In this document: positions 3,213 through 33,718 of the stretch, in pieces
How positions within the stretch are numbered: the stretch's first letter is position 1
Layout: each line of letters opens with the position of its first letter
Assembly (NCBI GenBank): GCA_902492995.1
Contig: CABUNR010000002.1
Coordinates: 22,561-86,560, forward strand
Source of the DNA: an uncultured Bacillota bacterium
GTDB taxonomy: Bacteria > Bacillota_I > Bacilli_A > RF39 > UBA660
Reading direction: 5' to 3'
Length of the DNA stretch: 64,000 nucleotides
Notes under the pieces: model-generated
What the model saw: only the letters and a program-made list of their open reading frames with translations
Databases searched by the model: none
Told to the model about the DNA's origin: nothing
Position numbers and translations under genes: made by a program

Positions 3213-3848
3213 TTATTTAACTTCTTTTACTTTACAATTATCAAATTCAAAGATTTTGTTAGAAAGTTCATTTATATCTTCTTTTATATGTGATGAAATA
3301 ATAATTATTTTTCCCTTTTCTTTTTCTTCAAGTAATAATTTTTTAATCTTATTAACAGATTCATAATCAATACCATTAAATGGTTCATCTAAAATAATTA
3401 TTTTGGGATTTTCCATTAATACTTGTGCTATACCAAGTTTTTGTTTCATTCCTAAAGAATATTTATAATATTTTTTATCTTTTTCCTCATATAAACCAAC
3501 ATTTTTTAAAGATCTTTCAATTTCTTCTTTAGTAATAATTTTTTTAATATTAGCTATTAATTCTAAATTCTTATATCCGCTTAATGTTGGAATAAATTGG
3601 GGTCTTTCTATTAGACATCTTGTTGAAGGCGGAACAACTATATCTTTATTTAAAATTTTATCATCATATATAATTTGACCTGCTGTTGGAACTATAAATC
3701 CACAAATTAGCTTTAATAAAAGTGATTTACCACTACCATTTCTACCAATAAACCCATAAATGTTACCATCTTCAAATTCTATATTTACATCCTCTAAAAT
3801 AATATTTTTTTTATATTCTTTTTTTATATTTTTTAAAACTATTTTCAT
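3213..3848 (-). CDS. ABC transporter ATP-binding protein (short, single NBD)
   Basis: Walker A GRNGSGKS, signature-like YSLGMKQKL, Walker B IIILDEPFNGID. Confidence 0.8.
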   Translation of the reverse strand: MKIVLKNIKKEYKKNIILEDVNIEFEDGNIYGFIGRNGSGKSLLLKLICGFIVPTAGQIIYDDKILNKDIVVPPSTRCLIERPQFIPTLSGYKNLELIANIKKIITKEEIERSLKNVGLYEEKDKKYYKYSLGMKQKLGIAQVLMENPKIIILDEPFNGIDYESVNKIKKLLLEEKEKGKIIIISSHIKEDINELSNKIFEFDNCKVKEVK

Positions 3849-7945: not shown

Positions 7946-8022
7946 GGGCGATTAGCTCAGTTGGTTAGAGCACCTGCCTTACAAGCAGGGGGTCATAGGT
8001 TCGAGTCCTATATCGCCCACCA
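7946..8022 (+). tRNA. tRNA-Val (anticodon TAC), CCA encoded
   Basis: Cloverleaf read by eye: acceptor gggcgat/atcgccc, anticodon loop cTTACAa, T-loop GGTTCGAGTCC. Confidence 0.8.
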
Positions 8023-8023
8023 T

Positions 8024-8099
8024 GCCGAAATGGCGCAACTGGTAGCGCAACTGACTTGTAATCAGTAGGTTGCGGGTTCGATTCCTGCTTTCGGCACCA
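8024..8099 (+). tRNA. tRNA-Thr (anticodon TGT), CCA encoded
   Basis: Acceptor gccgaaa/tttcggc, anticodon stem actga/tcagt with loop cTTGTAa, T-loop GGTTCGATTCC. Confidence 0.75.
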
Positions 8100-8104
8100 T
8101 TTTT

Positions 8105-8188
8105 GGAGGGGTAGCGAAGTGGTCAAACGCGGCAGACTGTAAATCTGTTCCTTCGGGTTCGATGGTTCAAATCCATCTCCCTCCACCA
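8105..8188 (+). tRNA. tRNA-Tyr (anticodon GTA), long variable arm, CCA encoded
   Basis: Acceptor ggagggg/tccctcc, anticodon loop cTGTAAa, variable arm and T-loop GGTTCAAATCC. Confidence 0.75.
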
Positions 8189-8200
8189 CTTTAGTTTTAT

Positions 8201-8276
8201 TGCCTCGTAGCCAAGCGGTAAGGCACCACACTTTGACTGTGGCATTTCGCTAGTTCGAATCTAGCCGAGGCAGCCA
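8201..8276 (+). tRNA. tRNA-Gln (anticodon TTG), CCA encoded
   Basis: U1:A72 acceptor tgcctcg/cgaggca, anticodon stem ccaca/tgtgg with loop cTTTGAc; same architecture as bacterial tRNA-Gln. Confidence 0.75.
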
Positions 8277-8293
8277 TTTTACTTTAACTATAT

Positions 8294-8369
8294 GTCCTGT
8301 TAGCTCAGTAGGTAGAGCATCTGACTTTTAATCAGAGGGTCACAGATTCGAGTTCTGTACAGGACACCA
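8294..8369 (+). tRNA. tRNA-Lys (anticodon TTT), CCA encoded
   Basis: Acceptor gtcctgt/acaggac, anticodon loop cTTTTAa, T-loop GATTCGAGTTC. Confidence 0.8.
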
Positions 8370-10856: not shown

Positions 10857-11307
10857 ATATGCATTCAACACAAGTATCATTTAAACATCTAAGTGCACAT
10901 ACACATTGTAAATTCATTGTGAAGAAAGAATTTGTAGCTATATAAGGTATAGTATCAACCTCAGTTTGATCAGTATTAGGTGCTAAAACTCTAAAAGTAG
11001 CACAATTACCATCAATTTTTTCTACTCTAAATACATTTGATGTAGTAGTTTCATTAGGAATTTTACTTATAGGCATACTCCAAGCAACACCATTACCAGA
11101 ACATGTATATAACATAATTGGTCTTGTGTTACAACTTAAACATGTTGTTGAATTTCCTAAAAATCCTTTATCACAAGTGTCAAGACATGTGTCACCACAG
11201 CAACTTGCATTATGTTGTAGTATATTTATTACTGTTAATATTTCAGCTATGCATTTACAATCATTATTTTCATTACACATATAATCCACCCCTTCTTTTA
11301 TATTCAA
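10855..11307 (-). CDS. Cysteine-rich spore coat/exosporium protein of the CotY/CotZ (ExsY) family
   Basis: 150 aa with about 20 Cys. NVFRVEKIDGNCATFRVL and QCVCALRCLND closely parallel the B. subtilis CotZ stretches FFRVERVHGSCATL and CFCAINCLNP. Confidence 0.65.
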   Translation of the reverse strand: MNIKEGVDYMCNENNDCKCIAEILTVINILQHNASCCGDTCLDTCDKGFLGNSTTCLSCNTRPIMLYTCSGNGVAWSMPISKIPNETTTSNVFRVEKIDGNCATFRVLAPNTDQTEVDTIPYIATNSFFTMNLQCVCALRCLNDTCVECI

Positions 11308-22105: not shown

Positions 22106-22660
22106 ATGAAAAAGGTAATAGTATTTATGTTAGGATTAATTTTAGTAACAGGATGTTCATGTGGTAATACTAATTTAGTGAAAAAAACACCAACTAAAAC
22201 TGTAGAAAACTTCTTTAAAAATTATCAAACATTAGATAGTAGTGTCATAAAACAACTAGATGAAGTAGTTGATAAAAAAACAGAATTTACAGAAGAACAA
22301 AAAAAAGAATATAAAGAACTTATGAAAAAGCATTATAAAGAATTAACATATGAAGTAAAGGATGAAGTAATAGATGGTGATAATGCAACTGTTACAGTTG
22401 AAATAGAAGTAACAGATTATTCAAAAATAATGACAGATGCTGATACTTACTTATCACAAAATCCTAATGAATTTAATAATAGTGAAGGAGTATATGATGT
22501 GACTTTATTTACTAATTATAGATTAGAAAAACTTAAAGAAGCAAAAGATAAAGTAAAATATACTCTTAATTTAACTCTAACAAAAGTTAATGATGAATGG
22601 ATGCTAGATACATTAAGTGATACTGATGAGAGCAAAATTCATGGAACATATGTATATTAA
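22106..22660 (+). CDS. Lipoprotein of unknown function
   Basis: Signal peptide plus lipobox LVTGC; acidic mature domain. Confidence 0.5.
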   Translation: MKKVIVFMLGLILVTGCSCGNTNLVKKTPTKTVENFFKNYQTLDSSVIKQLDEVVDKKTEFTEEQKKEYKELMKKHYKELTYEVKDEVIDGDNATVTVEIEVTDYSKIMTDADTYLSQNPNEFNNSEGVYDVTLFTNYRLEKLKEAKDKVKYTLNLTLTKVNDEWMLDTLSDTDESKIHGTYVY

Positions 22661-22726: not shown

Positions 22727-24016
22727 ATGAAAAAAGCTTTATTTATAGTAATATTAATTCTTTTTATCATGATAATACCATTTACACTATCAAAAAACGA
22801 AATATCAAAAACAATTATTAAAACAGAAAAATTAACAACAAATAATAATCAAAAAATTTTAGAAAATTATGGATATATAAGTGGATATAGTTGTAAAAAA
22901 ATAACAGTTATAAATGAAGATGGTACTTTAAATGGTAGATATAATTTAGAGGATTATGTTGTTGGTGTTGTATCCGGTGAAGCACACGTATTAGATGATG
23001 AAGAAACATTTAAAGCTATGTCGGTTCTAGCAAGAACATATGCATTATATGTAACTAAAAATTGTAAATATTCAATTGTAAATAGTGAAGCAAACCAAGT
23101 AATGGATAATCCTAAAATTGTATCTAAAAAAATAAAAGATGCTGTATCTAAAACCGAAGGAGAAGTATTAACTTTAAATGGAAATTTAGTAAAATCTGAA
23201 TATGATTCATTTTATATGGGAACTGGATTTTATTGTGATTATAAGTATTGTTATAGTACTTACTTAAAAGTAGGTGATAAAAATCCCAAAAAACAAAAAA
23301 TTAAAGTTCCAGCAAGTTGGCGTAATGACTTATCTGGAGGTCATGGAAAAGGATTAAGTCAATATGGCTCAAAATATTTATCTATGCAAGGTTATGATTA
23401 CAAAAAAATATTAAAATATTTTTATGCAGATGGAGTTAAAATAAGTACCATAATTAAGCCAAATGTAGATGGACTTGAAATAGAAAATAATTTTATAACA
23501 AGAAAAACAAGGCCACTTAGAAATAATAAATTTTATTATATAAATGACGTGGTAAACAAAATAACTAAAGAAGGAGATTCAACTTGGTATGCAACATCTA
23601 GAGCTAATGAAATATTAAAATCAAAAAATATAGAAAAAAATTTTCCATATTTAAAAGACTCTGAAAATTATTGTAATGTAAGTAATTTTAATAAGTCATA
23701 TAATTATGAAGAACCACATATTGGATCTATTATAAGTTATGGTAAACATCTAGCAATTATAGAAAATGTTCATGATGATATGGTTGATATAACTGAAGCA
23801 TATATAGGCCTAGGATATTATAAAATAGAATTTGCTAATGAATATTTAAATGAAACAGGTATGTATTATAATGCTAAAACAAATAGCAAGGATAGAAAAT
23901 ATAATTGTGAAAAAAATGGTAGTGGATGTTTTAAAAGAACAAATAATATAAAAATATCTGAATTAAAAAGTAGATGGGGATATGATTTTAAATGTTACAT
24001 ATATCTAGTAAATTAA
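22727..24016 (+). CDS. SpoIID/LytB-domain protein (sporulation amidase-enhancer type) with a C-terminal extension
   Basis: N-terminal TM; DYVVGVVSGEAHVLDDEETFKAMSVLARTYALY matches the SpoIID core motif. The C-terminal 130 aa carries a Cys/His pattern reminiscent of a CHAP-like fold. Confidence 0.55.
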   Translation: MKKALFIVILILFIMIIPFTLSKNEISKTIIKTEKLTTNNNQKILENYGYISGYSCKKITVINEDGTLNGRYNLEDYVVGVVSGEAHVLDDEETFKAMSVLARTYALYVTKNCKYSIVNSEANQVMDNPKIVSKKIKDAVSKTEGEVLTLNGNLVKSEYDSFYMGTGFYCDYKYCYSTYLKVGDKNPKKQKIKVPASWRNDLSGGHGKGLSQYGSKYLSMQGYDYKKILKYFYADGVKISTIIKPNVDGLEIENNFITRKTRPLRNNKFYYINDVVNKITKEGDSTWYATSRANEILKSKNIEKNFPYLKDSENYCNVSNFNKSYNYEEPHIGSIISYGKHLAIIENVHDDMVDITEAYIGLGYYKIEFANEYLNETGMYYNAKTNSKDRKYNCEKNGSGCFKRTNNIKISELKSRWGYDFKCYIYLVN

Positions 24017-24735
24017 AAATAATAGTATTTTTATCATTTATTTTATTATTAAGTGGTTGTGAGGCTGAATACAATATTGATATAAATAATAATAACTTAA
24101 AAGAAACAATAAATATAAAAGAATTAAACATAGAAAAATTTAATGAAAAAAATTCATTATTATATAATCTTACTCCACAAGATTATTTAGATACAAATTT
24201 AAAGTGGCCAACACCTGTATACAAAAATAGTGAATTAAATCCATATGAACCAATTAAACTTAATAATATAAAATACTATACGAAAACAAATATAAGTAAT
24301 TATAAAGTTTTAGGACTCAGTTTAAGCTATAATCATAATCAAAATTATTATATAAATTCTGATATTTTAAACAAATGTTATGATGTAAGTTATAGCAAAA
24401 CAAATGATAAAATACATTTTGAGACAATAAGTGAGTTCAAATGTTTTGATGAATATAAAGTTTTAGAAAATGTAACTGTTAATTTAAATACAAAATGTAA
24501 TGTAGAAAATGAAAATTCAGATAATAAAACTATAAATAAATATACTTGGTATATAACAAAAGACAATTATAAAAGTAAAAAAATAAATTTTGATGTAGAA
24601 TGTATACAAAAAACTGAAAAAAAAGAAGTAAATGAAAAAGATACACTAATTATGTTTATAATATTATATATTTTAGTAATATCTTTAATAATCTTAATAG
24701 TAAAAATATTACATTATAAAAACAATAAAATATAA
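23992..24735 (+). CDS. Lipoprotein with C-terminal TM anchor
   Basis: Lipobox LLLSGC, Cys-containing mature domain and a C-terminal hydrophobic helix. Same topology and size class as the T4SS-associated lipoprotein at 62078..62746. Confidence 0.45.
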   Translation: MLHISSKLKIIVFLSFILLLSGCEAEYNIDINNNNLKETINIKELNIEKFNEKNSLLYNLTPQDYLDTNLKWPTPVYKNSELNPYEPIKLNNIKYYTKTNISNYKVLGLSLSYNHNQNYYINSDILNKCYDVSYSKTNDKIHFETISEFKCFDEYKVLENVTVNLNTKCNVENENSDNKTINKYTWYITKDNYKSKKINFDVECIQKTEKKEVNEKDTLIMFIILYILVISLIILIVKILHYKNNKI

Positions 24736-24760
24736 AGCTTGAAAAAGCTTTTTTTTTTTA
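24734..24760 (+). terminator. Rho-independent terminator (hairpin core identical to the one at 32569..32594)
   Basis: aaagcttgaaaaagcttt followed by a T-run of more than 10. Confidence 0.7.
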
Positions 24761-24785
24761 AAATAAAAAAATTTTAAAAAAAGTA

Positions 24786-24814
24786 TTGACAAAATAAAAT
24801 GTTTTTAATAAAAT
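24786..24814 (+). promoter_or_regulatory. Candidate sigma-A promoter (TTGACA, 17 bp spacer, TAAAAT), followed by inverted repeat ACAAGTgaaaaACTTGT at 24822..24838
   Basis: Consensus -35 with ideal spacing; the palindrome immediately downstream could be an operator or 5' hairpin. Confidence 0.5.
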
Positions 24815-24892
24815 GTTAATAACAAGTGAAAAACTTGTCAAATATTTATCTTATGTTATTAACAAAATATTAAAAAGAAAGAAGGAAATAAA

Positions 24893-25249
24893 ATGATATT
24901 AGAAATGACAAAGGAACAAACAATTAAATTAATTAAAGGTTATTATAAAATAAATGAAAAAATGGATGTTGATGTAAAATTTGATACATTCACAAGTTAC
25001 TATGGAGATTTTAATAGACAAAGTTTAATTAATACAAACATTATTGTAGAAGCAAAAAAGGAAATATTAAATGAAGTATTTGAATTTAACTATAAATTAG
25101 ATATGGAAGATACAAAAAAAATCTTAAAAACATTATTGCTAGAACAAATAGATTTTGATGAAATGGATATTAGATACAATATAAATAGATCAGAGCAATT
25201 TGAAGGTCTAACAGTAAATGTAAAATCAAAACAAAAAGTAAAAAATTAA
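24893..25249 (+). CDS. Stand-alone paralog of the N-terminal domain of the nicotinamidase fusion protein
   Basis: 118 aa; MILEMTKEQTIKLIKGYYK...DVKFDTFT...ILKTLLLEQIDFDEMDIRYNINRSEQFEGL aligns along its whole length with residues 1-118 of ORF 25304..26227. Confidence 0.6.
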   Translation: MILEMTKEQTIKLIKGYYKINEKMDVDVKFDTFTSYYGDFNRQSLINTNIIVEAKKEILNEVFEFNYKLDMEDTKKILKTLLLEQIDFDEMDIRYNINRSEQFEGLTVNVKSKQKVKN

Positions 25250-25303
25250 TTTATTATATTTTATGTTATTAACAAAATATTAAAAAGAAAGAAGGAGATA
25301 AAA

Positions 25304-26227
25304 ATGACATTACAGATGACAAAAGATCAAATAATTAAATTAATAAAAACGTATTATAAAAAATATCAAAACATGAATGTTGATGTAAAATTTAATACAT
25401 TTACAAATTGTTCTTTAGATTTTAATAAAGAAAGATCTATTAAAATAAATATTATCGTAGATGAAATAAAAGATACGTACAAATTTAGAAATGAATTAGA
25501 TATAGAAGACATAAAAAATATTCTAAAAACATTATTACTAGAAGAAATGAATTTAGATGAAATGGATATTAACTATAATGTAAATGAGTTAGAACAATTT
25601 GAAGGACTAAGAATAAACATAAAATCAAAACAAAATATAAAAAATTTAAAATATTATGAAGGAATTCTTATCGTAGTAGATATGATAAATGGATTTGTAA
25701 AGGAAGGTGCATTACATGATAAAAAAATTATAGATGTAGTTCCAAGACAAATCGAGTTAATAAAAGAAGCTAAACAAAGAAATGATTTAGTTGTATTTAT
25801 TAGAGATGTTCATACAGAAAAATCGGTAGAACACAAAAGATTTAATGGAGCACTTCATTGCATTAAAGGAAGTGGTGAAGAAAATTTAATAGATGAATTA
25901 AAACCATATCAAAAAGACTCGATTTCGTTTGAAAAAAATTCAACTTCATTTATGTTTGCAAAAGGATTTATTCAAATGTTAGAACAATTAAAAAATTTAA
26001 AAAGAGTTGATGTAATTGGATGTTGTACAGACATTTGTATTGCAAATGGAGTAATTCCAATGATGAATTATTTTGATGAAAATAATAGAGATATTATAGT
26101 AAATGTTCATGAGGATGCGATAGAAACATATGATGCACCATTTCATGATAGAAATAAGTATAAAGAAGCAGCACTATTATTAATGAATCAACAAGGTGCA
26201 AAAATAAAATCAAAAAAAATAAGATAG
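25304..26227 (+). CDS. pncA: Nicotinamidase/isochorismatase-family hydrolase with a 118-aa N-terminal domain of unknown function
   Basis: C-terminal 190 aa carry an isochorismatase-fold D/K/C triad (VVDMINGF ... VIGCCTDICIANGV). NAD-salvage neighbours support a nicotinamidase assignment. Confidence 0.7.
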   Translation: MTLQMTKDQIIKLIKTYYKKYQNMNVDVKFNTFTNCSLDFNKERSIKINIIVDEIKDTYKFRNELDIEDIKNILKTLLLEEMNLDEMDINYNVNELEQFEGLRINIKSKQNIKNLKYYEGILIVVDMINGFVKEGALHDKKIIDVVPRQIELIKEAKQRNDLVVFIRDVHTEKSVEHKRFNGALHCIKGSGEENLIDELKPYQKDSISFEKNSTSFMFAKGFIQMLEQLKNLKRVDVIGCCTDICIANGVIPMMNYFDENNRDIIVNVHEDAIETYDAPFHDRNKYKEAALLLMNQQGAKIKSKKIR

Positions 26228-26237
26228 GAGAGATAAT

Positions 26238-27710
26238 ATGAAAATATATAATGGATATAAAAGATTAGCACGTAACTATACTTTAATGACGGATGAATAT
26301 GAGTATACAATGGCTAATGGATATTTAATTAACAATAAAGAAAAGAATGAAGCTGTATTTGATATCTTTTTTAGAAAAATACCAAATGGTGGTGGATATG
26401 CAATAATGGCTGGTATTGATAAAGTAATAGAGTATATTAAGAAACTAAAATTTGAAGGAAAGGATTTAGATTATTTTAGAAGAAAAAACTATCCTAAAGA
26501 ATTTATAGAATACTTAAGAAATTTTAAATTTACAGGAGATATATATGCAATTGTAGATGGAACACCAGTATTCCCAAATGAACCTATTCTAACAGTAAAA
26601 GCACCACTTATTGAAGCTCAAATAGTAGAAACAGCACTTTTATCAATTATTAATGGAGCAATGGAACATGCAACAGGTGCAAGAAGAATTGTAGAAGCAA
26701 CACCTAAAAATGTTGGAATTATGGAATTTGGAGCAAGAAGAGCTGATGGATTAGAAGCAGCAATAGATGCGTCAATTTATGGAATTATGGCTGGATGTGT
26801 TGGAACAAGTAATGTAATTGCAGCAGATATGTTAAATATGAAAGCAATGGGAACACAAGCCCATAGTTGGATTGAATCATATCCAACAGAATATGATGCC
26901 TTCTTAAGCTATGCTAAAGTATACCCTGATAATTGTATTTTATTAGTTGATACTATTGATACATTAAAAAGTGGAATACCAAATGCAATAAAAGTATTTA
27001 ATTATATGAAAGAAAGCAATATGAATATTGATAATATAGGAATACGTATAGATTCAGGAGATTTAGCTTATCTTTCAAAAGAAGCAAGAAAAATGTTAGA
27101 TGAGGCAGGATTTAAAAATGCCAAAATATGTTTAAGCAATGGCTTAACAGCAGAAACAATTGAATCATTAGTAAATCAAGGTGCAAAATTTGACAGTTTA
27201 GGAGTAGGAGATAACATTTCAAAACCAGAAGGAAGAATGGGGTGTGTTTATAAAGAAGTAGCACTAAAAGAAAACAATGAGTTTATTCCAAAAATTAAAT
27301 TAAGTAATGATACTATTAAAATAGTAAATCCTGACTATAAAAAATTATATAGAGCTTATGATAAAAAAACAGGATATGCTATAGCAGATATTATGACAAG
27401 AAAAAATGAAAAAATAGAACCTAAAGATTTAATAATTGTAAGTACGACAGATTATTTAAAAAGAAGTACAATTAATAATTTTGAATTAGTAGAACTTCAA
27501 AAACCAATATTTAAAAATGGTAAATTAGTTTATAATGATCCAGATATAAAAGAAAAACAAAAATATTGTGATGAACAAATGAGTACAATTTATCCAGAGA
27601 TTAAAAGAACTAAAATGCCACATGAGTATTATGTTGATGGAACAGAAGATTATATTAATTTTAAAAATAATATGATTATAGAAGCAAAGAAGAAAGTGAA
27701 AACAAAATAA
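26238..27710 (+). CDS. pncB: Nicotinate phosphoribosyltransferase
   Basis: 490 aa; NAPRTase family pattern (YEYTMANGY..., GTQAHSWIESY, IRIDSGDLAY). Confidence 0.9.
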   Translation: MKIYNGYKRLARNYTLMTDEYEYTMANGYLINNKEKNEAVFDIFFRKIPNGGGYAIMAGIDKVIEYIKKLKFEGKDLDYFRRKNYPKEFIEYLRNFKFTGDIYAIVDGTPVFPNEPILTVKAPLIEAQIVETALLSIINGAMEHATGARRIVEATPKNVGIMEFGARRADGLEAAIDASIYGIMAGCVGTSNVIAADMLNMKAMGTQAHSWIESYPTEYDAFLSYAKVYPDNCILLVDTIDTLKSGIPNAIKVFNYMKESNMNIDNIGIRIDSGDLAYLSKEARKMLDEAGFKNAKICLSNGLTAETIESLVNQGAKFDSLGVGDNISKPEGRMGCVYKEVALKENNEFIPKIKLSNDTIKIVNPDYKKLYRAYDKKTGYAIADIMTRKNEKIEPKDLIIVSTTDYLKRSTINNFELVELQKPIFKNGKLVYNDPDIKEKQKYCDEQMSTIYPEIKRTKMPHEYYVDGTEDYINFKNNMIIEAKKKVKTK

Positions 27711-28306
27711 TGTATAAAATAAAAGAAATAGAAAAATACTATGATGAATTAAAAACAATTGATATGAAAAAAACTTCATCAATTAAAAGCAGTTTTTTAT
27801 CAATAGAAAACTACAATTGTAAATTAAATAATGGTCATATTATAAAAAGAGAAAAAATATTAAAAAATAATAAACCAGGTAGTGCAGCAATTATTTTACC
27901 AATAACAGAAGATGGTAAGATAATACTTGCAATAGAACCAAGAGTATTTACCAAAAAAACAGTAGATATAGGATTGCCAGCTGGATATATAGAAAACAAA
28001 GAATATCCATATATGGCAGCAATAAGAGAATTAGAAGAAGAAACAGGTTATACATCAGATCAACTAGAACTTTTAGGATCATATTATCAAGATCAAGGAT
28101 GTTCAGAAGCTATTAATTATTATTATATAGCTTATAACTGTAAGAGAGTAAACCAACAAAATTTAGATGAAGGAGAATTTATAAAATATATATTAGTAAC
28201 ATTAGAAGAATTAGAAGAATTAGTAGAAAAAAATTATATAAAAGGATTAAATTCAGCATTTATAATAGAAAAAGGTAAAAAACAATTAAAAAAAATAAGG
28301 AGGTAA
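27710..28306 (+). CDS. Nudix hydrolase (ADP-ribose pyrophosphatase-like)
   Basis: Nudix box GLPAGYIENKEYPYMAAIRELEEETGY. Confidence 0.75.
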   Translation: MYKIKEIEKYYDELKTIDMKKTSSIKSSFLSIENYNCKLNNGHIIKREKILKNNKPGSAAIILPITEDGKIILAIEPRVFTKKTVDIGLPAGYIENKEYPYMAAIRELEEETGYTSDQLELLGSYYQDQGCSEAINYYYIAYNCKRVNQQNLDEGEFIKYILVTLEELEELVEKNYIKGLNSAFIIEKGKKQLKKIRR

Positions 28307-28310
28307 TAAT

Positions 28311-29069
28311 ATGTTTGATGCAAATAAACAAGCAAAGGAAATAATAAAATATATAAGAAATTATTATAAAAAAAATAATTTAAAAGGAGCCGTAATAGGT
28401 ATAAGTGGAGGAAAAGATTCAGCTGTTGTAGCAGGGCTTTTTACAAAAGCATTAAAAAGTGAAAATGTTGTAGGATTGTGGCTTCCATGTAATTCTAGTG
28501 AAGAGGATAAAAATAATGCTAAACAATTAGCTAATCACTTCAATTTTGAATTAAAAGAATTTGATTTAACAAATATATATAATAATTATGAAAAACAATT
28601 TAAAAAAATAAATAACTCAAGTGATGAAGAATTAATAGATGCCAATATAAATATAAAACCAAGACTTAGAATGGCAACCTTATATTATCATGCAGCCTAT
28701 TTAAGCAAAAAAAATAAAGGAGTTTACATTGTCCCTGGAACTAGTAATAAATGTGAAATATATGTTGGCTATTTCACTAAAGGTGGAGATAATGTATGTG
28801 ATATTCAAGTATTATCAGATCTTACAGTAGATCAAGTAATAAAAGTAGGCGAAGTAATTAAAATACCTAAAAATATATTATATAAAGCACCAGATGATGG
28901 AATTAGTGGAAAAACAGATGAAGAAAAACTTGGAGTTAAAAATAAAGAAATAGCCGATGTTATAGAAAATGAAGGAAAAAATGTAACAAAAGAGGTAAAA
29001 GAAAAAATAGAAAAATTACATAAAAATAATATGCATAAATTTAATATACCAACTTATAAAAGAAAGTAG
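28311..29069 (+). CDS. nadE: NH3-dependent NAD+ synthetase
   Basis: PP-loop GISGGKDSAV; 252 aa typical of single-domain NadE. Confidence 0.85.
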   Translation: MFDANKQAKEIIKYIRNYYKKNNLKGAVIGISGGKDSAVVAGLFTKALKSENVVGLWLPCNSSEEDKNNAKQLANHFNFELKEFDLTNIYNNYEKQFKKINNSSDEELIDANINIKPRLRMATLYYHAAYLSKKNKGVYIVPGTSNKCEIYVGYFTKGGDNVCDIQVLSDLTVDQVIKVGEVIKIPKNILYKAPDDGISGKTDEEKLGVKNKEIADVIENEGKNVTKEVKEKIEKLHKNNMHKFNIPTYKRK

Positions 29070-29076
29070 GGATAAA

Positions 29077-30147
29077 ATGGAAGATTTAAAATTAATAGTA
29101 CTTGATAATATAGAAGAATTTGGTAAAAAAACAGATGAATATTTAAAAAAAATAAATAAAACAAATAAATCATATATTATACCTATTACAAGAGATAGAT
29201 TTAGTAATGGTGAAGGAAAAATAAAAATAAATGGAACAGTTAGAGATAAAGATATATATATATTAAGTGATGTTGGTAATTATAATGCAACATATAATAT
29301 GCACGGATTAACACATCATATGGCACCAGATGAACATTTCCAAGATATAAAAAGAGTAATATCTGCCTTATCAGGTTATGCATCTAAAATAACACTTGTA
29401 ATGCCACTTTTATATGAGTCAAGACAACATAAAAGAAAAGGAAGAGAATCATTAGATTGTGCTATTGCATTACAAGAATTAGAAAGACTTGGAGTAAATC
29501 ATATTGTTACATTTGATGCACATGATCCAAATGTATCAAATGCTATACCGAATCTTCCATTTGAAAACTTTTATGTAGCCCATGATATATTAAATAGATT
29601 AGTAGAAAAAGAAAATATAGATAATATTTTAGTTGTAAGCCCAGATATGGGAGCTATGGAAAGAGCAAGATATTATGCTGAAATATTAGATAGTGATGTT
29701 GGTGTATTTTATAAAAGAAGAGATTTAAGCAAAGTTGTAAATGGAAAAAATCCAATTGTTGAACATGTATATTTAGGTGCAAATGTTAAAGAAAAAGATA
29801 TAATCGTTGTAGATGACATGATAGCTAGTGGTACATCTATGATAGAAGTATCAAAATATTTAAAAGAAAATGGTGCAAATAAAGTATATTTAGTATCGAC
29901 ATTTGCCCTATTAACAGAAGGTCCAGATAGATTTATAAAAGCATATAAAGAAGGATTATTTGATAAGTTATACTCAACAAATTTATCATATGTTTCAGAA
30001 ACAATAAAAAAAGAACCATGGTATGAAGATACAGATTGTTCTAAAAGACTAGCTAATATAATAAATAAATTACATAATAAAGAATCTTTAAAAACAATAT
30101 TTGATGATACAAAAGAAGTATTAAAAAAAATAGAAAGAAAAAAGTAA
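29077..30147 (+). CDS. prs: Ribose-phosphate pyrophosphokinase (PRPP synthetase) family protein
   Basis: PRPP-binding loop VVDDMIASGTSM and the Prs N-terminal domain pattern; 356 aa with a 40-aa C-terminal extension. Confidence 0.7.
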   Translation: MEDLKLIVLDNIEEFGKKTDEYLKKINKTNKSYIIPITRDRFSNGEGKIKINGTVRDKDIYILSDVGNYNATYNMHGLTHHMAPDEHFQDIKRVISALSGYASKITLVMPLLYESRQHKRKGRESLDCAIALQELERLGVNHIVTFDAHDPNVSNAIPNLPFENFYVAHDILNRLVEKENIDNILVVSPDMGAMERARYYAEILDSDVGVFYKRRDLSKVVNGKNPIVEHVYLGANVKEKDIIVVDDMIASGTSMIEVSKYLKENGANKVYLVSTFALLTEGPDRFIKAYKEGLFDKLYSTNLSYVSETIKKEPWYEDTDCSKRLANIINKLHNKESLKTIFDDTKEVLKKIERKK

Positions 30148-30148
30148 T

Positions 30149-30736
30149 ATGAAAATAGGTATATTTGGAGGCTCATTTAATCCACCACATAAAATGCATA
30201 AAAATATAGCGCTTAATCTCATAAAGAATAAATATTTAGATAAAGTTATATATGTTCCAACTGGCAATAAATATAATAAAAAAGATTTAATAGATGCTAT
30301 GGATAGATATAATATGCTTAAAATAATGATAGAAGGATATAAAAATTTAGAATTATCTAATTATGAAATTAAAAATACTTTAACATACACTTATCAAACA
30401 TTAAATTATTTTAAAAGAATATACAAAAATGATGAAATATATTTTATATGTGGTTTAGATAATTTAAAAGAAATAACAACATGGAAAAATTATGAATATA
30501 TTTTAAATAATTTTAAAATATTAGTTATTAAAAGAAATGATATTGATATAAATAATATATTAAATAAAATTAATAGTAAAGATATAATAGTTACTAACAT
30601 AAAATTAAATAATATATCATCAACTAATATTAGAAAAAATCTACAAAATAAAAAAGCAAGAGAAATATATAATGATATAGAAAAGAATGTATTAAAATAC
30701 ATAGAAAAAAACAATTTATATGAAATAAAAAAGTGA
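30149..30736 (+). CDS. nadD: Nicotinate-nucleotide adenylyltransferase
   Basis: N-terminal GIFGGSFNPPHKMH, the (H/T)xGH nucleotidyltransferase motif; 195 aa. Confidence 0.85.
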   Translation: MKIGIFGGSFNPPHKMHKNIALNLIKNKYLDKVIYVPTGNKYNKKDLIDAMDRYNMLKIMIEGYKNLELSNYEIKNTLTYTYQTLNYFKRIYKNDEIYFICGLDNLKEITTWKNYEYILNNFKILVIKRNDIDINNILNKINSKDIIVTNIKLNNISSTNIRKNLQNKKAREIYNDIEKNVLKYIEKNNLYEIKK

Positions 30737-30756
30737 TAAATAATCACTTTTTTACA
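30729..30756. terminator. Terminator hairpin overlapping the nadD stop, probably bidirectional
   Basis: aagtgat-aaataa-atcactt followed by a T-run. Confidence 0.55.
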
Positions 30757-31073
30757 GTTTTTAAGCATCTTTATAATGATCATAATATCTATAAAAACTA
30801 TGAACAGAATCATCTTTTTCTTTACTACCATCATAAAAAACATATGAACTAATTAAATTACCACCATTATTTGTAATATAATCTTTAATTTTATTTCTTG
30901 TTCCTCCTAAATAATAACTATCATTAATAAAAATTAAATTTTTATTATTTATATCATAAAGTTCGTTAAATGGTTCTATTTCTTAATCTTTCATCAATAG
31001 CATCAAAAAATTTTTCTCCACCTTCATGTTGAATTAGACATTCATTTATTAAACTCTCCATCTTTGTAACCAT
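30745..31073 (-). pseudogene. Disrupted small ORF: 35-aa N-terminal frame (MVTKMESLINECLIQHEGGEKFFDAIDERLRNRTI) continues in the +1 frame for a further 79 aa
   Basis: Minus-strand translation shows two consecutive open frames joined near 30960..30985 with no start codon for the second; one indel would fuse them. May be a sequencing frameshift. Confidence 0.3.
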
Positions 31074-31167
31074 AAAATCCCCCTTTAATCAGTAGTGAGT
31101 CTTCTATAATAAATGTTTGATTTTGTCAAATTTTATGTTATAATCAATTTGTGAAAAAGAGGTAATT

Positions 31168-31668
31168 ATGAGAATAGGATTAGATATAGATAATGTAATA
31201 TTAAATACAGATAGTTTAATATTAGAAGAAATGATAAAAGAAGATAAACGTAAAAGAAACAAAGGTATAATTAATGAAAATGCTCCGTATATATTTTCAG
31301 GTATGTTTGATTGGCCTAAAGAAGAAATAGAAGAATTTTTAATTAATAATATGGAAAAAATCGCAACAAAATTAAAAAAAGTAGACATGTCAAAAGAATA
31401 CATAGATAAATTATTAGAAGAAGGAAACCAGGTATATTTGATATCTAATAGAGCTTATTCATACTATAAAAATCCATTAAAAACAACAAAAGAAAATTTA
31501 AAGAAAAATAAAATAAATTATACAGAATTAATATTAACCAATACAAATGATAAAAGTAAGGAATGTAAAGATTTAAAGATAGATATAATGTTTGACGATA
31601 GAGCAAGTAATTGTATGAAGTTAAAAAAAACAAAATATCAATTGCTACTTAGTAAAAACAAAATATGA
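31168..31668 (+). CDS. HAD-superfamily 5'(3')-deoxyribonucleotidase-like nucleotidase
   Basis: N-terminal MRIGLDIDNVI (DxD HAD motif I) and C-terminal IMFDDRASN (motif IV-like). Confidence 0.5.
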   Translation: MRIGLDIDNVILNTDSLILEEMIKEDKRKRNKGIINENAPYIFSGMFDWPKEEIEEFLINNMEKIATKLKKVDMSKEYIDKLLEEGNQVYLISNRAYSYYKNPLKTTKENLKKNKINYTELILTNTNDKSKECKDLKIDIMFDDRASNCMKLKKTKYQLLLSKNKI

Positions 31669-31744
31669 AACAAGAACATTTGACGATTTAGAAATATCAA
31701 TAATTTTGAAGAAATATATTTAAAAATAAAAGAGGTGGAAAATA

Positions 31745-32566
31745 ATGGAATATAAATCAGAAGAAGAATTTTTACGTGATTATGACCCTAATCAATTTGA
31801 TAGATTATCACTTACAACAGATATTTTAATATTCAGTGTATCTGATGAAATAGAAAAAAATTATAGAAAATTAAGTAAAAAATATTTTAGTATTTTACTT
31901 GTTAAAAGAGATACATATCCCTTTAAAGATAAATGGTGCTTACCGGGTGGATTTATAAAAATAGATGAAGATATAGAAGATGCTGCAACAAGAATATTAG
32001 AAGAAGAAGCAAATATTAAAGACATATATCTAGAACAGCTCTATACATATGGTAGTCCAAATAGAGATCCAAGAATGAGAGTTGTATCAACATCATATAT
32101 GGCCTTAATTGATAAAAATAGATTGCAAAATCATATTTCTAAAAATGCTTCATGGTTTAATGTATTTGCATTAGAAGATAAAGAAATAATAAATATAACA
32201 CTAGATAATGGAAACGAAACAATTAAATTAAAAGTAAAAAAAATAAAAGAAGAAAAAACAATAGATAGATATAAATATGAAATATTAGAAAATGATAAAT
32301 TAGCATTTGATCATGCCTTAGTAATAACAACCGGTATTTCAAGATTAAAAAACAAGATAGAATATACGGACATTGTATTTAATATGATGCCAGAATATTT
32401 TACATTAGGTGAATTACAACAGGTATATGAAGCTATATTAGGCAAAAAATTATTAGATCCAGCATTTAGAAGAATAATAGCAAAAAAAACGGAAAAAACT
32501 GATAAAATGAAAACAGGCGGAGGGCATCGACCATCAGTATTGTTTAAATATAAAAATAATAATTAA
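31745..32566 (+). CDS. NrtR-like Nudix-related transcriptional regulator (Nudix fold plus C-terminal winged-helix)
   Basis: Nudix-like box LPGGFIKIDEDIEDAATRILEEEANI followed by a 110-aa C-terminal region consistent with the NrtR wHTH domain; sits at the end of the NAD cluster. Confidence 0.5.
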   Translation: MEYKSEEEFLRDYDPNQFDRLSLTTDILIFSVSDEIEKNYRKLSKKYFSILLVKRDTYPFKDKWCLPGGFIKIDEDIEDAATRILEEEANIKDIYLEQLYTYGSPNRDPRMRVVSTSYMALIDKNRLQNHISKNASWFNVFALEDKEIINITLDNGNETIKLKVKKIKEEKTIDRYKYEILENDKLAFDHALVITTGISRLKNKIEYTDIVFNMMPEYFTLGELQQVYEAILGKKLLDPAFRRIIAKKTEKTDKMKTGGGHRPSVLFKYKNNN

Positions 32567-32568
32567 TG

Positions 32569-32594
32569 TAAAGCTTGAAAAAGCTTTTTTTGTT
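32569..32594 (+). terminator. Rho-independent terminator (same hairpin core as 24734..24760)
   Basis: aaagcttgaaaaagcttt followed by a T-run. Confidence 0.7.
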
Positions 32595-32635
32595 ATAAAA
32601 CAAAATATTTTACATAGTATTATATAGGTGATAAT

Positions 32636-33718
32636 GTGAAAAAAATAATTATTTTAATTGTCGGTATAATACTAGTTATTCCAATAAATACAAAAGCAAT
32701 TAAAACAAGTGCAACAAGTTCTATTTTAATGGATGTAAATAGTAACAGAGTTTTATATAGTAATAATATTCATAATAGAAGGTCAGTTGCAAGTATATCA
32801 AAAATAATGACGGCAATTCTTGCAATAGAATCTGGAAAATTAGATAAAAAAGTTATAATTGATGATTCAATTGATAAGGCATACGGTTCTGGAATATATA
32901 TAAAAAAGGGTGAAGAATTAACATTAAGAGATTTAGTTTATGGTCTTATGTTAAGAAGTGGTAATGATGCAGCACTTGCAATTGCAAATTATGTTAGTAA
33001 AGATACAGAAGAATTTGTAAAATTAATGAATAAAAAAGCTATAGAATTAAAAATGATTAATACAGAATTTAATAATCCAAGTGGTTTAGATGAAGAAAAG
33101 GGAAATTATTCAACAGCATATGATATGGCTCTTTTAATGAGTTACGCATCCAAAAATAAAGAATTTCAAAAAATAACAAAAATAAAAAAATACACATTAA
33201 AAACCAATAAAAATACCTATATTTGGTATAACAAAAATAAATTATTAAATTTATATAAATATACAACTGGAGGAAAAACAGGATATACTAAAATAGCAAA
33301 AAGGACTTTAGTAACAACTGCAAGCAAAAATAATATGGATTTAGTTGTTGTAACTTTAAATGATGGAAATGATTGGAATGATCATAAAAATTTATTTGAA
33401 TATGGATTTAATAAATATAAAAGTTACAAAATATTAGATAAAAATAATTTTAAAGTAAAAAATGACACATATTATAAAGAAAATAAATTATATATCAAAA
33501 AAGATTATTGTTATGTAATTGAACCTGGTGAAGAACAAAACATTTTAATAAAAATAGAATTAAAGAAAAAAAGAAGTATCAAGAATAATATGAATGTTGG
33601 TAAAGCTATAATATATTTAGGGGATAAAAAAATACATGAAGAAAATATATATGTAAAATTAAAGGAAGAAAGAAAAGAAAAAAACTGGTTTAAAAAAATA
33701 ATAGGTAATTTATGGTAA
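32636..33718 (+). CDS. dacB: D-alanyl-D-alanine carboxypeptidase (S11 peptidase), sporulation-type
   Basis: Signal peptide; active-site motifs SISKIMT (SxxK), SGN and KTG; conserved dacB-spmA-spmB gene order. Confidence 0.8.
   Translation: MKKIIILIVGIILVIPINTKAIKTSATSSILMDVNSNRVLYSNNIHNRRSVASISKIMTAILAIESGKLDKKVIIDDSIDKAYGSGIYIKKGEELTLRDLVYGLMLRSGNDAALAIANYVSKDTEEFVKLMNKKAIELKMINTEFNNPSGLDEEKGNYSTAYDMALLMSYASKNKEFQKITKIKKYTLKTNKNTYIWYNKNKLLNLYKYTTGGKTGYTKIAKRTLVTTASKNNMDLVVVTLNDGNDWNDHKNLFEYGFNKYKSYKILDKNNFKVKNDTYYKENKLYIKKDYCYVIEPGEEQNILIKIELKKKRSIKNNMNVGKAIIYLGDKKIHEENIYVKLKEERKEKNWFKKIIGNLW

Follow-up and report, generated by a model that had tools for sequence, protein, structure and literature searches.

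Nicotinamidase (PncA) is generally regarded as a stand-alone enzyme. Why does the pncA gene of an uncultured Bacillota bacterium begin with an extra domain, and why does a free copy of the same domain lie just upstream of it? The DNA analyzed here, referred to as the window, is a stretch of 64,000 nucleotides (assembly GCA_902492995.1, contig CABUNR010000002.1, forward-strand positions 22,561 to 86,560), and all positions are counted from its first letter. The domain is called X, its free copy X1, and the copy joined to PncA X2. Related loci are designated by numbers with the prefix L. From the letters of the window and their open reading frames (ORFs), an original prediction had described a tandem module with a shared leader and a domain tied to nicotinamide salvage. 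We propose, with a probability of about 0.5, that X may be a non-catalytic partner of PncA and that the fusion fixes an association that already existed. The elements on which this proposal draws are the following.

24786..24814, plus strand: sigma-A-type promoter, TTGACA-17-TAAAAT, matching 11/12 consensus positions, the best in 24600-32700, with position and sequence conserved in relatives
24800..24824, unstranded: candidate composite operator over the -10 box and +1, made up of degenerate box TGTTTTTAATA (24800-24810), AAA and the perfect palindrome TGTTAATAACA (24814-24824)
24822..24838, plus strand: stem-loop ACAAGT-GAAAA-ACTTGT, the "palindrome" of the original prediction, with pairing in register and compensatory changes
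24847..24893, plus strand: leader copy 1, with box TGTTATTAACA (24854-24864), degenerate box TATTAAAAAGA (24868-24878) and an A-rich Shine-Dalgarno region, AAGGA (24882-24886)
24893..25249, plus strand: X1, the stand-alone X-family member of 118 amino acids (aa), from its ORF, alignment and profile searches; AlphaFold2 (AF2) model with a predicted local distance difference test score (pLDDT) of 83 and a predicted template modeling score (pTM) of 0.74
25257..25303, plus strand: leader copy 2, with box TGTTATTAACA (25264-25274) and a degenerate box (25278-25288), the counterpart of the intergenic element between X and pncA in relatives
25304..25645, plus strand: X2, residues 1-114 of the 307-aa fusion, with all family-invariant residues kept
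25639..25645, plus strand: fusion junction, codons K113-N114, where AAAAAAT is common to the end of X (..KN and stop) and the start of stand-alone pncA (MKNLK..)
25646..26227, plus strand: nicotinamidase (PncA) domain, fusion residues 115-307, from its PF00857 (1.7e-21) and 1ILW matches

A self-comparison of the window showed two tandem units of ~410 nt, each consisting of leader plus X, upstream of pncA, as had been described. The two leader copies are identical at 45/47 positions (96%), and the second has one extra A ahead of the ATG. The coding blocks are 79% identical between 24890-25062 and 25301-25473 and 81% identical between 25083-25247 and 25482-25646. The predicted end-to-end match of the 118-aa ORF to the N-terminus of the fusion was also found, over residues 1-114 (57% identity, E 4e-40), with X1 as the free paralog beside the fusion. 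X1 and X2 are not recent paralogs (synonymous divergence, dS, 0.46; nonsynonymous divergence, dN, 0.22). The leader is far more constrained than synonymous sites, since its copies differ at 2/47 positions compared to a dS of 0.46.

The fusion ORF (25304-26227) encodes 307 aa, of which residues 121-283 match the Pfam family Isochorismatase (PF00857, 1.7e-21). The best relative of the PncA domain in the PDB is the nicotinamidase of Pyrococcus horikoshii (1ILW/1IM5, E 2.2e-7). The catalytic aspartate and cysteine are intact (D126 and C245, equivalent to D10 and C133 of 1ILW), as are the metal ligands (D168, H170 and H185, equivalent to D52, H54 and H71). K211 pairs with the catalytic lysine in the alignment to 3EEF but not in the alignment to 1ILW. 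1IM5 has an Asp-Lys-Cys catalytic triad and an Asp-His-His metal site. Judged by its residues, the C-terminal part of the fusion is a nicotinamidase with a complete catalytic triad and metal site. The pncB gene (26238-27710) has the same orientation and starts 10 nt past the end of the fusion gene.

A frameshift, an assembly error or a mis-called ORF could create an apparent fusion, and the 47-nt leader repeat does break some short-read assemblies (Logan contigs L017-L019). However, NCBI, ENA and Logan assemblies together contain 22 contigs with the exact 307-aa protein, from independent samples and assemblers, and the frame is intact in 12/12 aligned strain loci at 98.9-100% identity. Therefore, the fusion is not an assembly artefact, and the chance that it is an artefact of any of these kinds is negligible. 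The 90% cluster of the fusion has 17 members, of which the 16 full-length ones are all 307 aa and one is a 58-aa fragment. The fusion is restricted to one species-level cluster, in which all strains have kept stand-alone X1 beside it. A single-sequence AF2 prediction of the whole fusion had a pLDDT of 34 and gave no usable model of the interface between X2 and the PncA domain, and a literature search for N-terminal extensions of nicotinamidase returned nothing relevant. In L017, L018 and L019 the fusion gene begins at locus position 38 and the alignment to the window only from 25267, within leader copy 2, where short-read assemblies may break at the 47-nt repeat.

The domain had been predicted to represent an unknown family, and our profile and structure searches agree. 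Pfam had no match to X1 and none that was consistent over 14 family members at E values up to 10. NCBIfam, PHROGs and PADLOC had no match to X, a sequence-profile search of the PDB had no meaningful match, and a PDB fold search with the X model had no significant match to any described fold. X relatives are also rare. A HMMER scan of 1.84 billion representative proteins found 3 X-family proteins, a profile search of 5.8 billion clusters found 13, and a DNA search based on the leader found one further divergent member, L031 (23% identity, hhalign probability 94%, E 1.6e-7). Across these searches of billions of proteins, there are only about 15 relatives in total. Word-indexed searches with X1 and with X2 alone returned only a 99%-identical copy. 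Two scans of 185,579 GTDB species genomes, one protein-pattern scan of JGI metagenomes, and searches of plasmids (tblastn and blastn) and phages (tblastn) found no X relatives.

Members of the family are 118-130 aa long, have no signal peptide and have a pI of 4.7-6.6. All relatives found outside the window's fusion are stand-alone proteins. The invariant residues are T6, Q9, K12, I14, Y17, Y18, K19, L69, I77, L82, E84, Y95, F103 and K117; none is Cys, His or Asp, and the first seven lie in predicted helix 1 (residues 7-22) or its N-terminal cap. Both X1 and X2 retain every one of them. Since these invariants are shared by ~15 relatives, the AF2 model of X1 is confident, and dN/dS between X1 and X2 is about 0.48, X is, on this comparative evidence, a real protein under selection. 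An enzymatic or nucleic-acid-binding role is unlikely, because X has no invariant Cys, His or Asp and has an acidic pI. X is a previously undescribed family of small, acidic, non-enzyme-like cytoplasmic proteins found in only a few uncultured low-GC Firmicutes. In the model, beta2-beta3-beta4-alpha2 resembles the beta-beta-beta-alpha dimerization modules of the COMM-domain type. It aligns with the COMM domain of Commd9 over 61 columns (root-mean-square deviation 3.8, target-normalized TM score 0.51, probability 0.92), and a bacterial COMMD-like protein also aligns. However, the E values are 0.1 or worse, the query-normalized TM score is 0.40 or lower and only half of X is covered, which gives no evidence of homology. 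A division of X into two beta-alpha-beta-beta repeats was rejected, as the sequence gives it no support (hhalign E 0.057, 15 columns).

Genomic context is the strongest functional evidence for X. In every readable neighborhood, including that of divergent L031, the X relative is the first gene of the cluster and lies directly 5' of an unfused pncA (197-214 aa), which upholds the predicted tie to nicotinamide salvage. The order in relatives is X, pncA, pncB, a Nudix hydrolase gene, nadE, prs and nadD, sometimes CinA or an ADP-ribosyl-glycohydrolase, then nrtR and often nadK. nrtR is present in every locus long enough to show it. Four loci (L030, L032, L033 and L035) have the same promoter module with pncA straight behind the leader and no X. 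Since these close relatives have pncA without X, X is a dedicated but accessory component of the nicotinamide and ADP-ribose recycling operon, and the pathway can dispense with it.

The same relatives indicate how the fusion could have come about. In loci with a single X, the leader occurs twice, before X and in the spacer between X and pncA, both times as TGTTATTAAYA-AAAYATTAAAAAGAAAGAGGAG-N6-8-ATG; in L003, it also precedes pncB. Because it borders X on both sides in these loci, the leader repeat is ancestral and not merely a by-product of the duplication. The ancestor would have had X between two copies of this leader, which consists of a box and a ribosome-binding site. Unequal crossover between the leaders would have duplicated leader and X to give (leader-X)-(leader-X)-pncA. 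A deletion of ~65 nt between AAAAATT microhomologies would then have eliminated the stop codon, the spacer and the ATG of pncA, joining X2 to the complete N-terminus of PncA. Stand-alone X ends in KSKQKVKN and a stop codon (..AAAAATTAA), stand-alone pncA of the window's type starts with MKNLKVYEEVLIVVDM (ATGAAAAATTTAAAA), and the fusion reads ..KSKQNIKN-LKYYEGILIVVDM at the junction (AAAAAATTTAAAA, 25639-25651). The disordered tail of X would now serve as the linker.

Protein identities differ along the operon. PncB of the window is 89% identical to that of L003 and 83% identical to that of L012 (72-89% across L003, L012 and L025). The Nudix hydrolase is 49-76% identical to its counterparts in these three loci, and NrtR is 86% identical (L012 only). 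For the same three loci, the identity is 40-43% for X and 29-34% for PncA, and the PncA of the window is 52-55% identical to the other clade's type. These values suggest that another 5' cassette has taken the place of the original one, perhaps via recombination at the conserved leader. Turnover at this end of the operon is rapid, and the locus illustrates how regulatory repeats on either side of a gene can bring about its duplication.

What, then, does X do? According to the "Rosetta stone" argument, enzyme fusions imply functional or physical coupling. X would bind PncA, for example as an oligomerizing, stabilizing or regulatory subunit, and the fusion would make this association permanent while free X1 is retained. 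This reading, our proposal above, is suggested because X always adjoins pncA, X2 keeps the conserved residues, the composition is not enzyme-like, and X and PncA were apparently exchanged together. Several points weigh against it. Contact between X and PncA is something we infer, and a microhomology deletion could have created the fusion by accident and been tolerated. L030, L032, L033 and L035 lack X despite the same regulatory module. Mirror-tree correlations are 0.78 for X with PncA and 0.76 for X with PncB, so co-evolution is indistinguishable from shared phylogeny. The chief alternative, though a less likely one, is that the fusion is a neutral accident and that X acts in the metabolism of nicotinamide adenine dinucleotide (NAD) without binding PncA, for example through nicotinamide, ADP-ribose or another partner, and is merely co-expressed. 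The junction does bear the signature of slippage between AAAAATT repeats, a free copy of X is kept in all strains, the fusion is confined to a single species-level cluster, and a dN/dS of about 0.48 indicates relaxed selection on the paralogs. An accident does not account as easily for the retention of every family-invariant residue in X2, or for the position of X, which always adjoins pncA and no other operon gene. Moreover, X and PncA of the window are jointly discordant with PncB (41-43% and 29-34% vs 89%), as if exchanged together.

A different role would be that of an operon autoregulator that recognizes the boxes or the leader, as DNA or RNA, and has been fused to the enzyme in the manner of NadR. 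In favor of this role, the operator array is followed first by X, and the leader stands before both X and pncA. The leader has also changed far less than the coding DNA (2/47 vs dS 0.46), and its conservation is directional and reaches past the palindrome. However, the extended conservation is explained by the degenerate box at +14 and the Shine-Dalgarno region, the model of X has no recognizable nucleic-acid-binding fold, and the module is fully conserved in the X-less NrtR locus L030 and before pnuC in L034. Given the acidity of X and the persistence of the module in loci without it, we consider this role highly improbable. To return to X as a partner of PncA, a more specific form of this reading is doubtful. 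X would be a non-catalytic nicotinamidase subunit with a new fold that gates or scaffolds the first step of nicotinamide recycling, for example by making the activity or oligomeric state of PncA depend on an NAD-derived ligand, and the duplication and fusion would have captured a heteromeric X1:X2-PncA assembly. The "regulatory or substrate-delivery" role in the original prediction is a conjecture.

The regulatory region is conserved independently of X. The consensus promoter claimed for the first copy is present, and transcription is predicted from the sequence to start near 24821. The 64 kb of the window contain 3 copies of the 11-bp palindrome TGTTAWTAACA, compared to 0.23 expected, all of them at this locus: at 24814, overlapping -10/+1; at 24854, in the 5' untranslated region (UTR); and at 25264, ahead of the fusion gene. 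Relatives have boxes at matching places, and the composite layout at -10/+1 is common to all related promoters. The boxes are spaced in phase, at 14 and about 41 bp. All 12 lineages have 40-44 bp between the box at the promoter and the box in the leader, and a box-like sequence lies 14 bp downstream of 28/48 anchor boxes. The leader is conserved beyond the palindrome because the degenerate box at +14, TATTAAAAAGA, runs into the Shine-Dalgarno region. One-mismatch boxes at 3347, 3925, 10698, 36209, 55166 and 56083 were rejected, as all are within ORFs unrelated to NAD. The spacer between X1 and X2 contains no internal sigma-A promoter at 9/12 matches, and a literature search for the box sequence returned nothing relevant. 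In L016, a metagenome-assembled genome from NCBI (GCA_964308555.1), a G-to-A change at 24815 converts the promoter-proximal box from TGTTAATAACA to TATTAATAACA.

A DNA search with the leader found the module of promoter, box, hairpin and leader directly before pncA in X-less loci. In L034 (850-2214), on a related metagenomic contig, the module precedes genes for a 164-aa cytidylyltransferase resembling nicotinamide mononucleotide adenylyltransferase (NMNAT) and for a PnuC transporter (PF04973), which makes this operon a candidate second member of the regulon. The box module is independent of X, since it occurs at X-less pncA loci and before pnuC. The original prediction had looked to recurrence of its palindrome at other NAD genes. 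Recurrence was found for the TGTTAWTAACA module, at the X-less pncA loci and the pnuC locus; the ACAAGT palindrome is present once in the window.

The NrtR-like gene predicted downstream is present at 31745-32566. Its product matches PF21906 (NrtR_WHD, 1.2e-16) and PF00293 (NUDIX, 4.1e-13), and it matches NF050029 at 6.4e-47, yet under the curated cut-off of that model. The TGTTAWTAACA boxes are likely the operator of NrtR. A typical NrtR operator is 21 bp long with a GT-N7-AC core, the motifs differ between lineages, and the pncA-pncB operons of Firmicutes have multiple NrtR sites, from which ADP-ribose relieves NrtR binding (PMC2330246). Bound to the box array, NrtR would repress the consensus promoter, with boxes at -10/+1, in the 5' UTR and ahead of the second gene, and ADP-ribose would lift the repression by analogy with characterized NrtRs. 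Two observations count against this assignment: the boxes have a GT-N5-AC core in place of the GT-N7-AC of most NrtR motifs, and no boxes were found at the nrtR/HAD promoter. None was found before prs in relatives either. Since the core is atypical and the nrtR promoter has no box, the assignment rests on co-localization. For comparative work, the locus offers clean data on an NAD operator specific to this lineage, an 11-bp box in 14-bp-phased arrays that stretch from the promoter as far as the ribosome-binding sites of consecutive genes.

The original prediction had instead proposed ACAAGT-N5-ACTTGT as the operator. The sequence ACAAGTGAAAAACTTGT (24822-24838) is a perfect 6+6 inverted repeat directly 3' of the promoter, overlaps box 1 and shares a GT-N5-AC core with the boxes. 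However, it occurs a single time in the window, shuffled sequence gave at least one match with up to one mismatch in 17/100 cases, and the repeat is missing from leader copy 2 and from the intergenic sites between X and pncA. In relatives, the arms covary and the spacer is 4-8 nt long. The arms are ACAAGT/ACTTGT in the window, L001, L012 and L025; ACAGAT/ATCTGT in L004, L008, L024 and L028; ACAGG/CTTGT with a G.T pair, which fits RNA pairing, in L003; CAGATGC/GCATCTG, with extra G-C pairs, in L032 and L035; and AGCAG/CTGCT in L031. All 15/15 sequences form a hairpin at the same place. In register, 81/90 cells pair, compared to 15-34/90 with the 3' arm slid, and two positions have compensatory double changes. 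These pairs were counted by script because MAFFT plus RNAalifold misaligned the 3' arms owing to the variable loops. Since the arms covary and the loop length varies, the element is a stem-loop rather than a protein site of fixed spacing, and a role as the NrtR operator is highly improbable. L001 and L002 have a 4-nt GAAA loop (A24829 deleted) together with C24839T, which lengthens the stem.

Gram-positive stem-loops at the 5' terminus, such as those of the aprE and ermC leaders, protect mRNA from 5'-end-dependent decay. Like them, the stem-loop of the window is within 0-2 nt of the predicted 5' end, 8 nt past the -10 box, and is followed by an A-rich leader that is essentially unstructured outside the hairpin and by a strong Shine-Dalgarno sequence. 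Unlike them, its start site and stabilizing role are predicted, and its 5' arm overlaps an operator box. By its position and covariation, 24822-24838 is probably a 5'-terminal hairpin that would stabilize the transcript, and the overlap suggests that it may have a dual role as DNA and RNA. One point against it is the folding energy of -5.5 kcal/mol, which is not exceptional compared to shuffles (z -0.43). An intrinsic terminator or attenuator was ruled out, as no T-run follows the hairpin. Rfam had no match in 24700-25400 at E values up to 10 and none at the gathering threshold near the locus; an NAD+ riboswitch (nadA and pnuC motifs) or other known RNA in the leader was rejected because no covariance model matched.

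The NrtR-regulated pncA-pncB operons of Firmicutes have the same gene set (pncA, pncB, nadD, nadE, prs, a Nudix hydrolase of the ADP-ribose type and nrtR), several candidate operator sites in one operon, and the same logic of nicotinamide and ADP-ribose recycling (PMC2330246). The operon of the window differs from these in its extra first gene X, duplicated and fused to PncA; in an 11-bp TGTTAWTAACA in 14-bp-phased arrays in place of a single 21-bp GT-N7-AC palindrome; in the conserved 5' stem-loop; and in having nrtR in a separate unit without a box. In the NAD enzyme fusions NadR (HTH-NMNAT-RNK), NadM-Nudix and CinA-PncC, an enzyme is likewise fused to a module that is encoded separately in relatives (see also PMC2330246). 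In contrast to these, the module fused here has no known activity, fold or family, and the fusion is recent, confined to one species and explicable by a simple microhomology deletion. YueI of Bacillus subtilis (DUF1694) is a small, uncharacterized cytoplasmic protein whose gene adjoins pncA/pncB. DUF1694/YueI was not among the matches to X in the Pfam scans (E up to 10), the PDB sequence-profile list or the 50 best PDB fold matches listed, and the analogy is one of context only. Thus, the NAD operon, PncA and NrtR control are of already known kinds. What is new is the X family, its duplication and fusion to PncA, and the lineage-specific phased box array with a 5' hairpin. If the proposal is correct, one of the best-mapped cofactor pathways would gain a component, a dedicated PncA accessory protein revealed by a natural fusion, and an orphan family would gain a testable function. 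The scope is narrow, as X is limited to a small set of uncultured Firmicutes of low GC content, whose close relatives can do without it.

The remaining features of the locus are listed below.

24734..24754, plus strand: terminator-like hairpin AAAGCTTGAAAAAGCTTTTTT at the end of the upstream gene, with an identical copy at 32570-32590, just past nrtR
26238..30736, plus strand: rest of the operon, with pncB 26238-27710, Nudix hydrolase gene 27710-28306, nadE 28311-29069, prs 29077-30147 and nadD 30149-30736
30731-30749: terminator-like hairpin after nadD
31117-31144: promoter-like site at the start of the nrtR/HAD unit
31745..32566, plus strand: nrtR (Nudix-like domain and NrtR winged helix), in a second unit with a HAD/NT5C gene (31168-31668)

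The 21-nt hairpin AAAGCTTGAAAAAGCTTTTTT occurs exactly 2 times in the window compared to 0 expected, and its copies bracket the whole 7.8-kb NAD cluster. This cluster may have moved as a unit, since the flanking genes differ between the window and L012 despite 83% identity in PncB. A conserved protein of 439-448 aa with no Pfam match is encoded between the nadD/CinA/ADP-ribosyl-glycohydrolase genes and nrtR in L004 (10022-11368), L005 (8848-10188) and L008 (8856-10175); it belongs to the higher-GC clade and is absent from the window. At 30773-31073 on the minus strand, the window has a decayed copy of a conserved 163/164-aa minus-strand gene that lies between the NAD genes of relatives, with residues ~40-90 deleted and a stop codon. 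The intact gene, at 17239-17733 in L012 and 7779-8270 in L004, has no Pfam match and encodes a motif, VFIDDSYYLGRT, that resembles a phosphoribosyl pyrophosphate (PRPP) loop. Elsewhere, the window contains a cluster of five tRNA genes (Val, Thr, Tyr, Gln and Lys) at 7946-8369, a CotZ-like spore-coat gene at 10858-11307 on the minus strand, and a gene with a SpoIID/LytB domain at 22727-24016. Together with a GC content of 24%, the coat gene and the SpoIID/LytB gene point to a spore-forming low-GC Firmicute.

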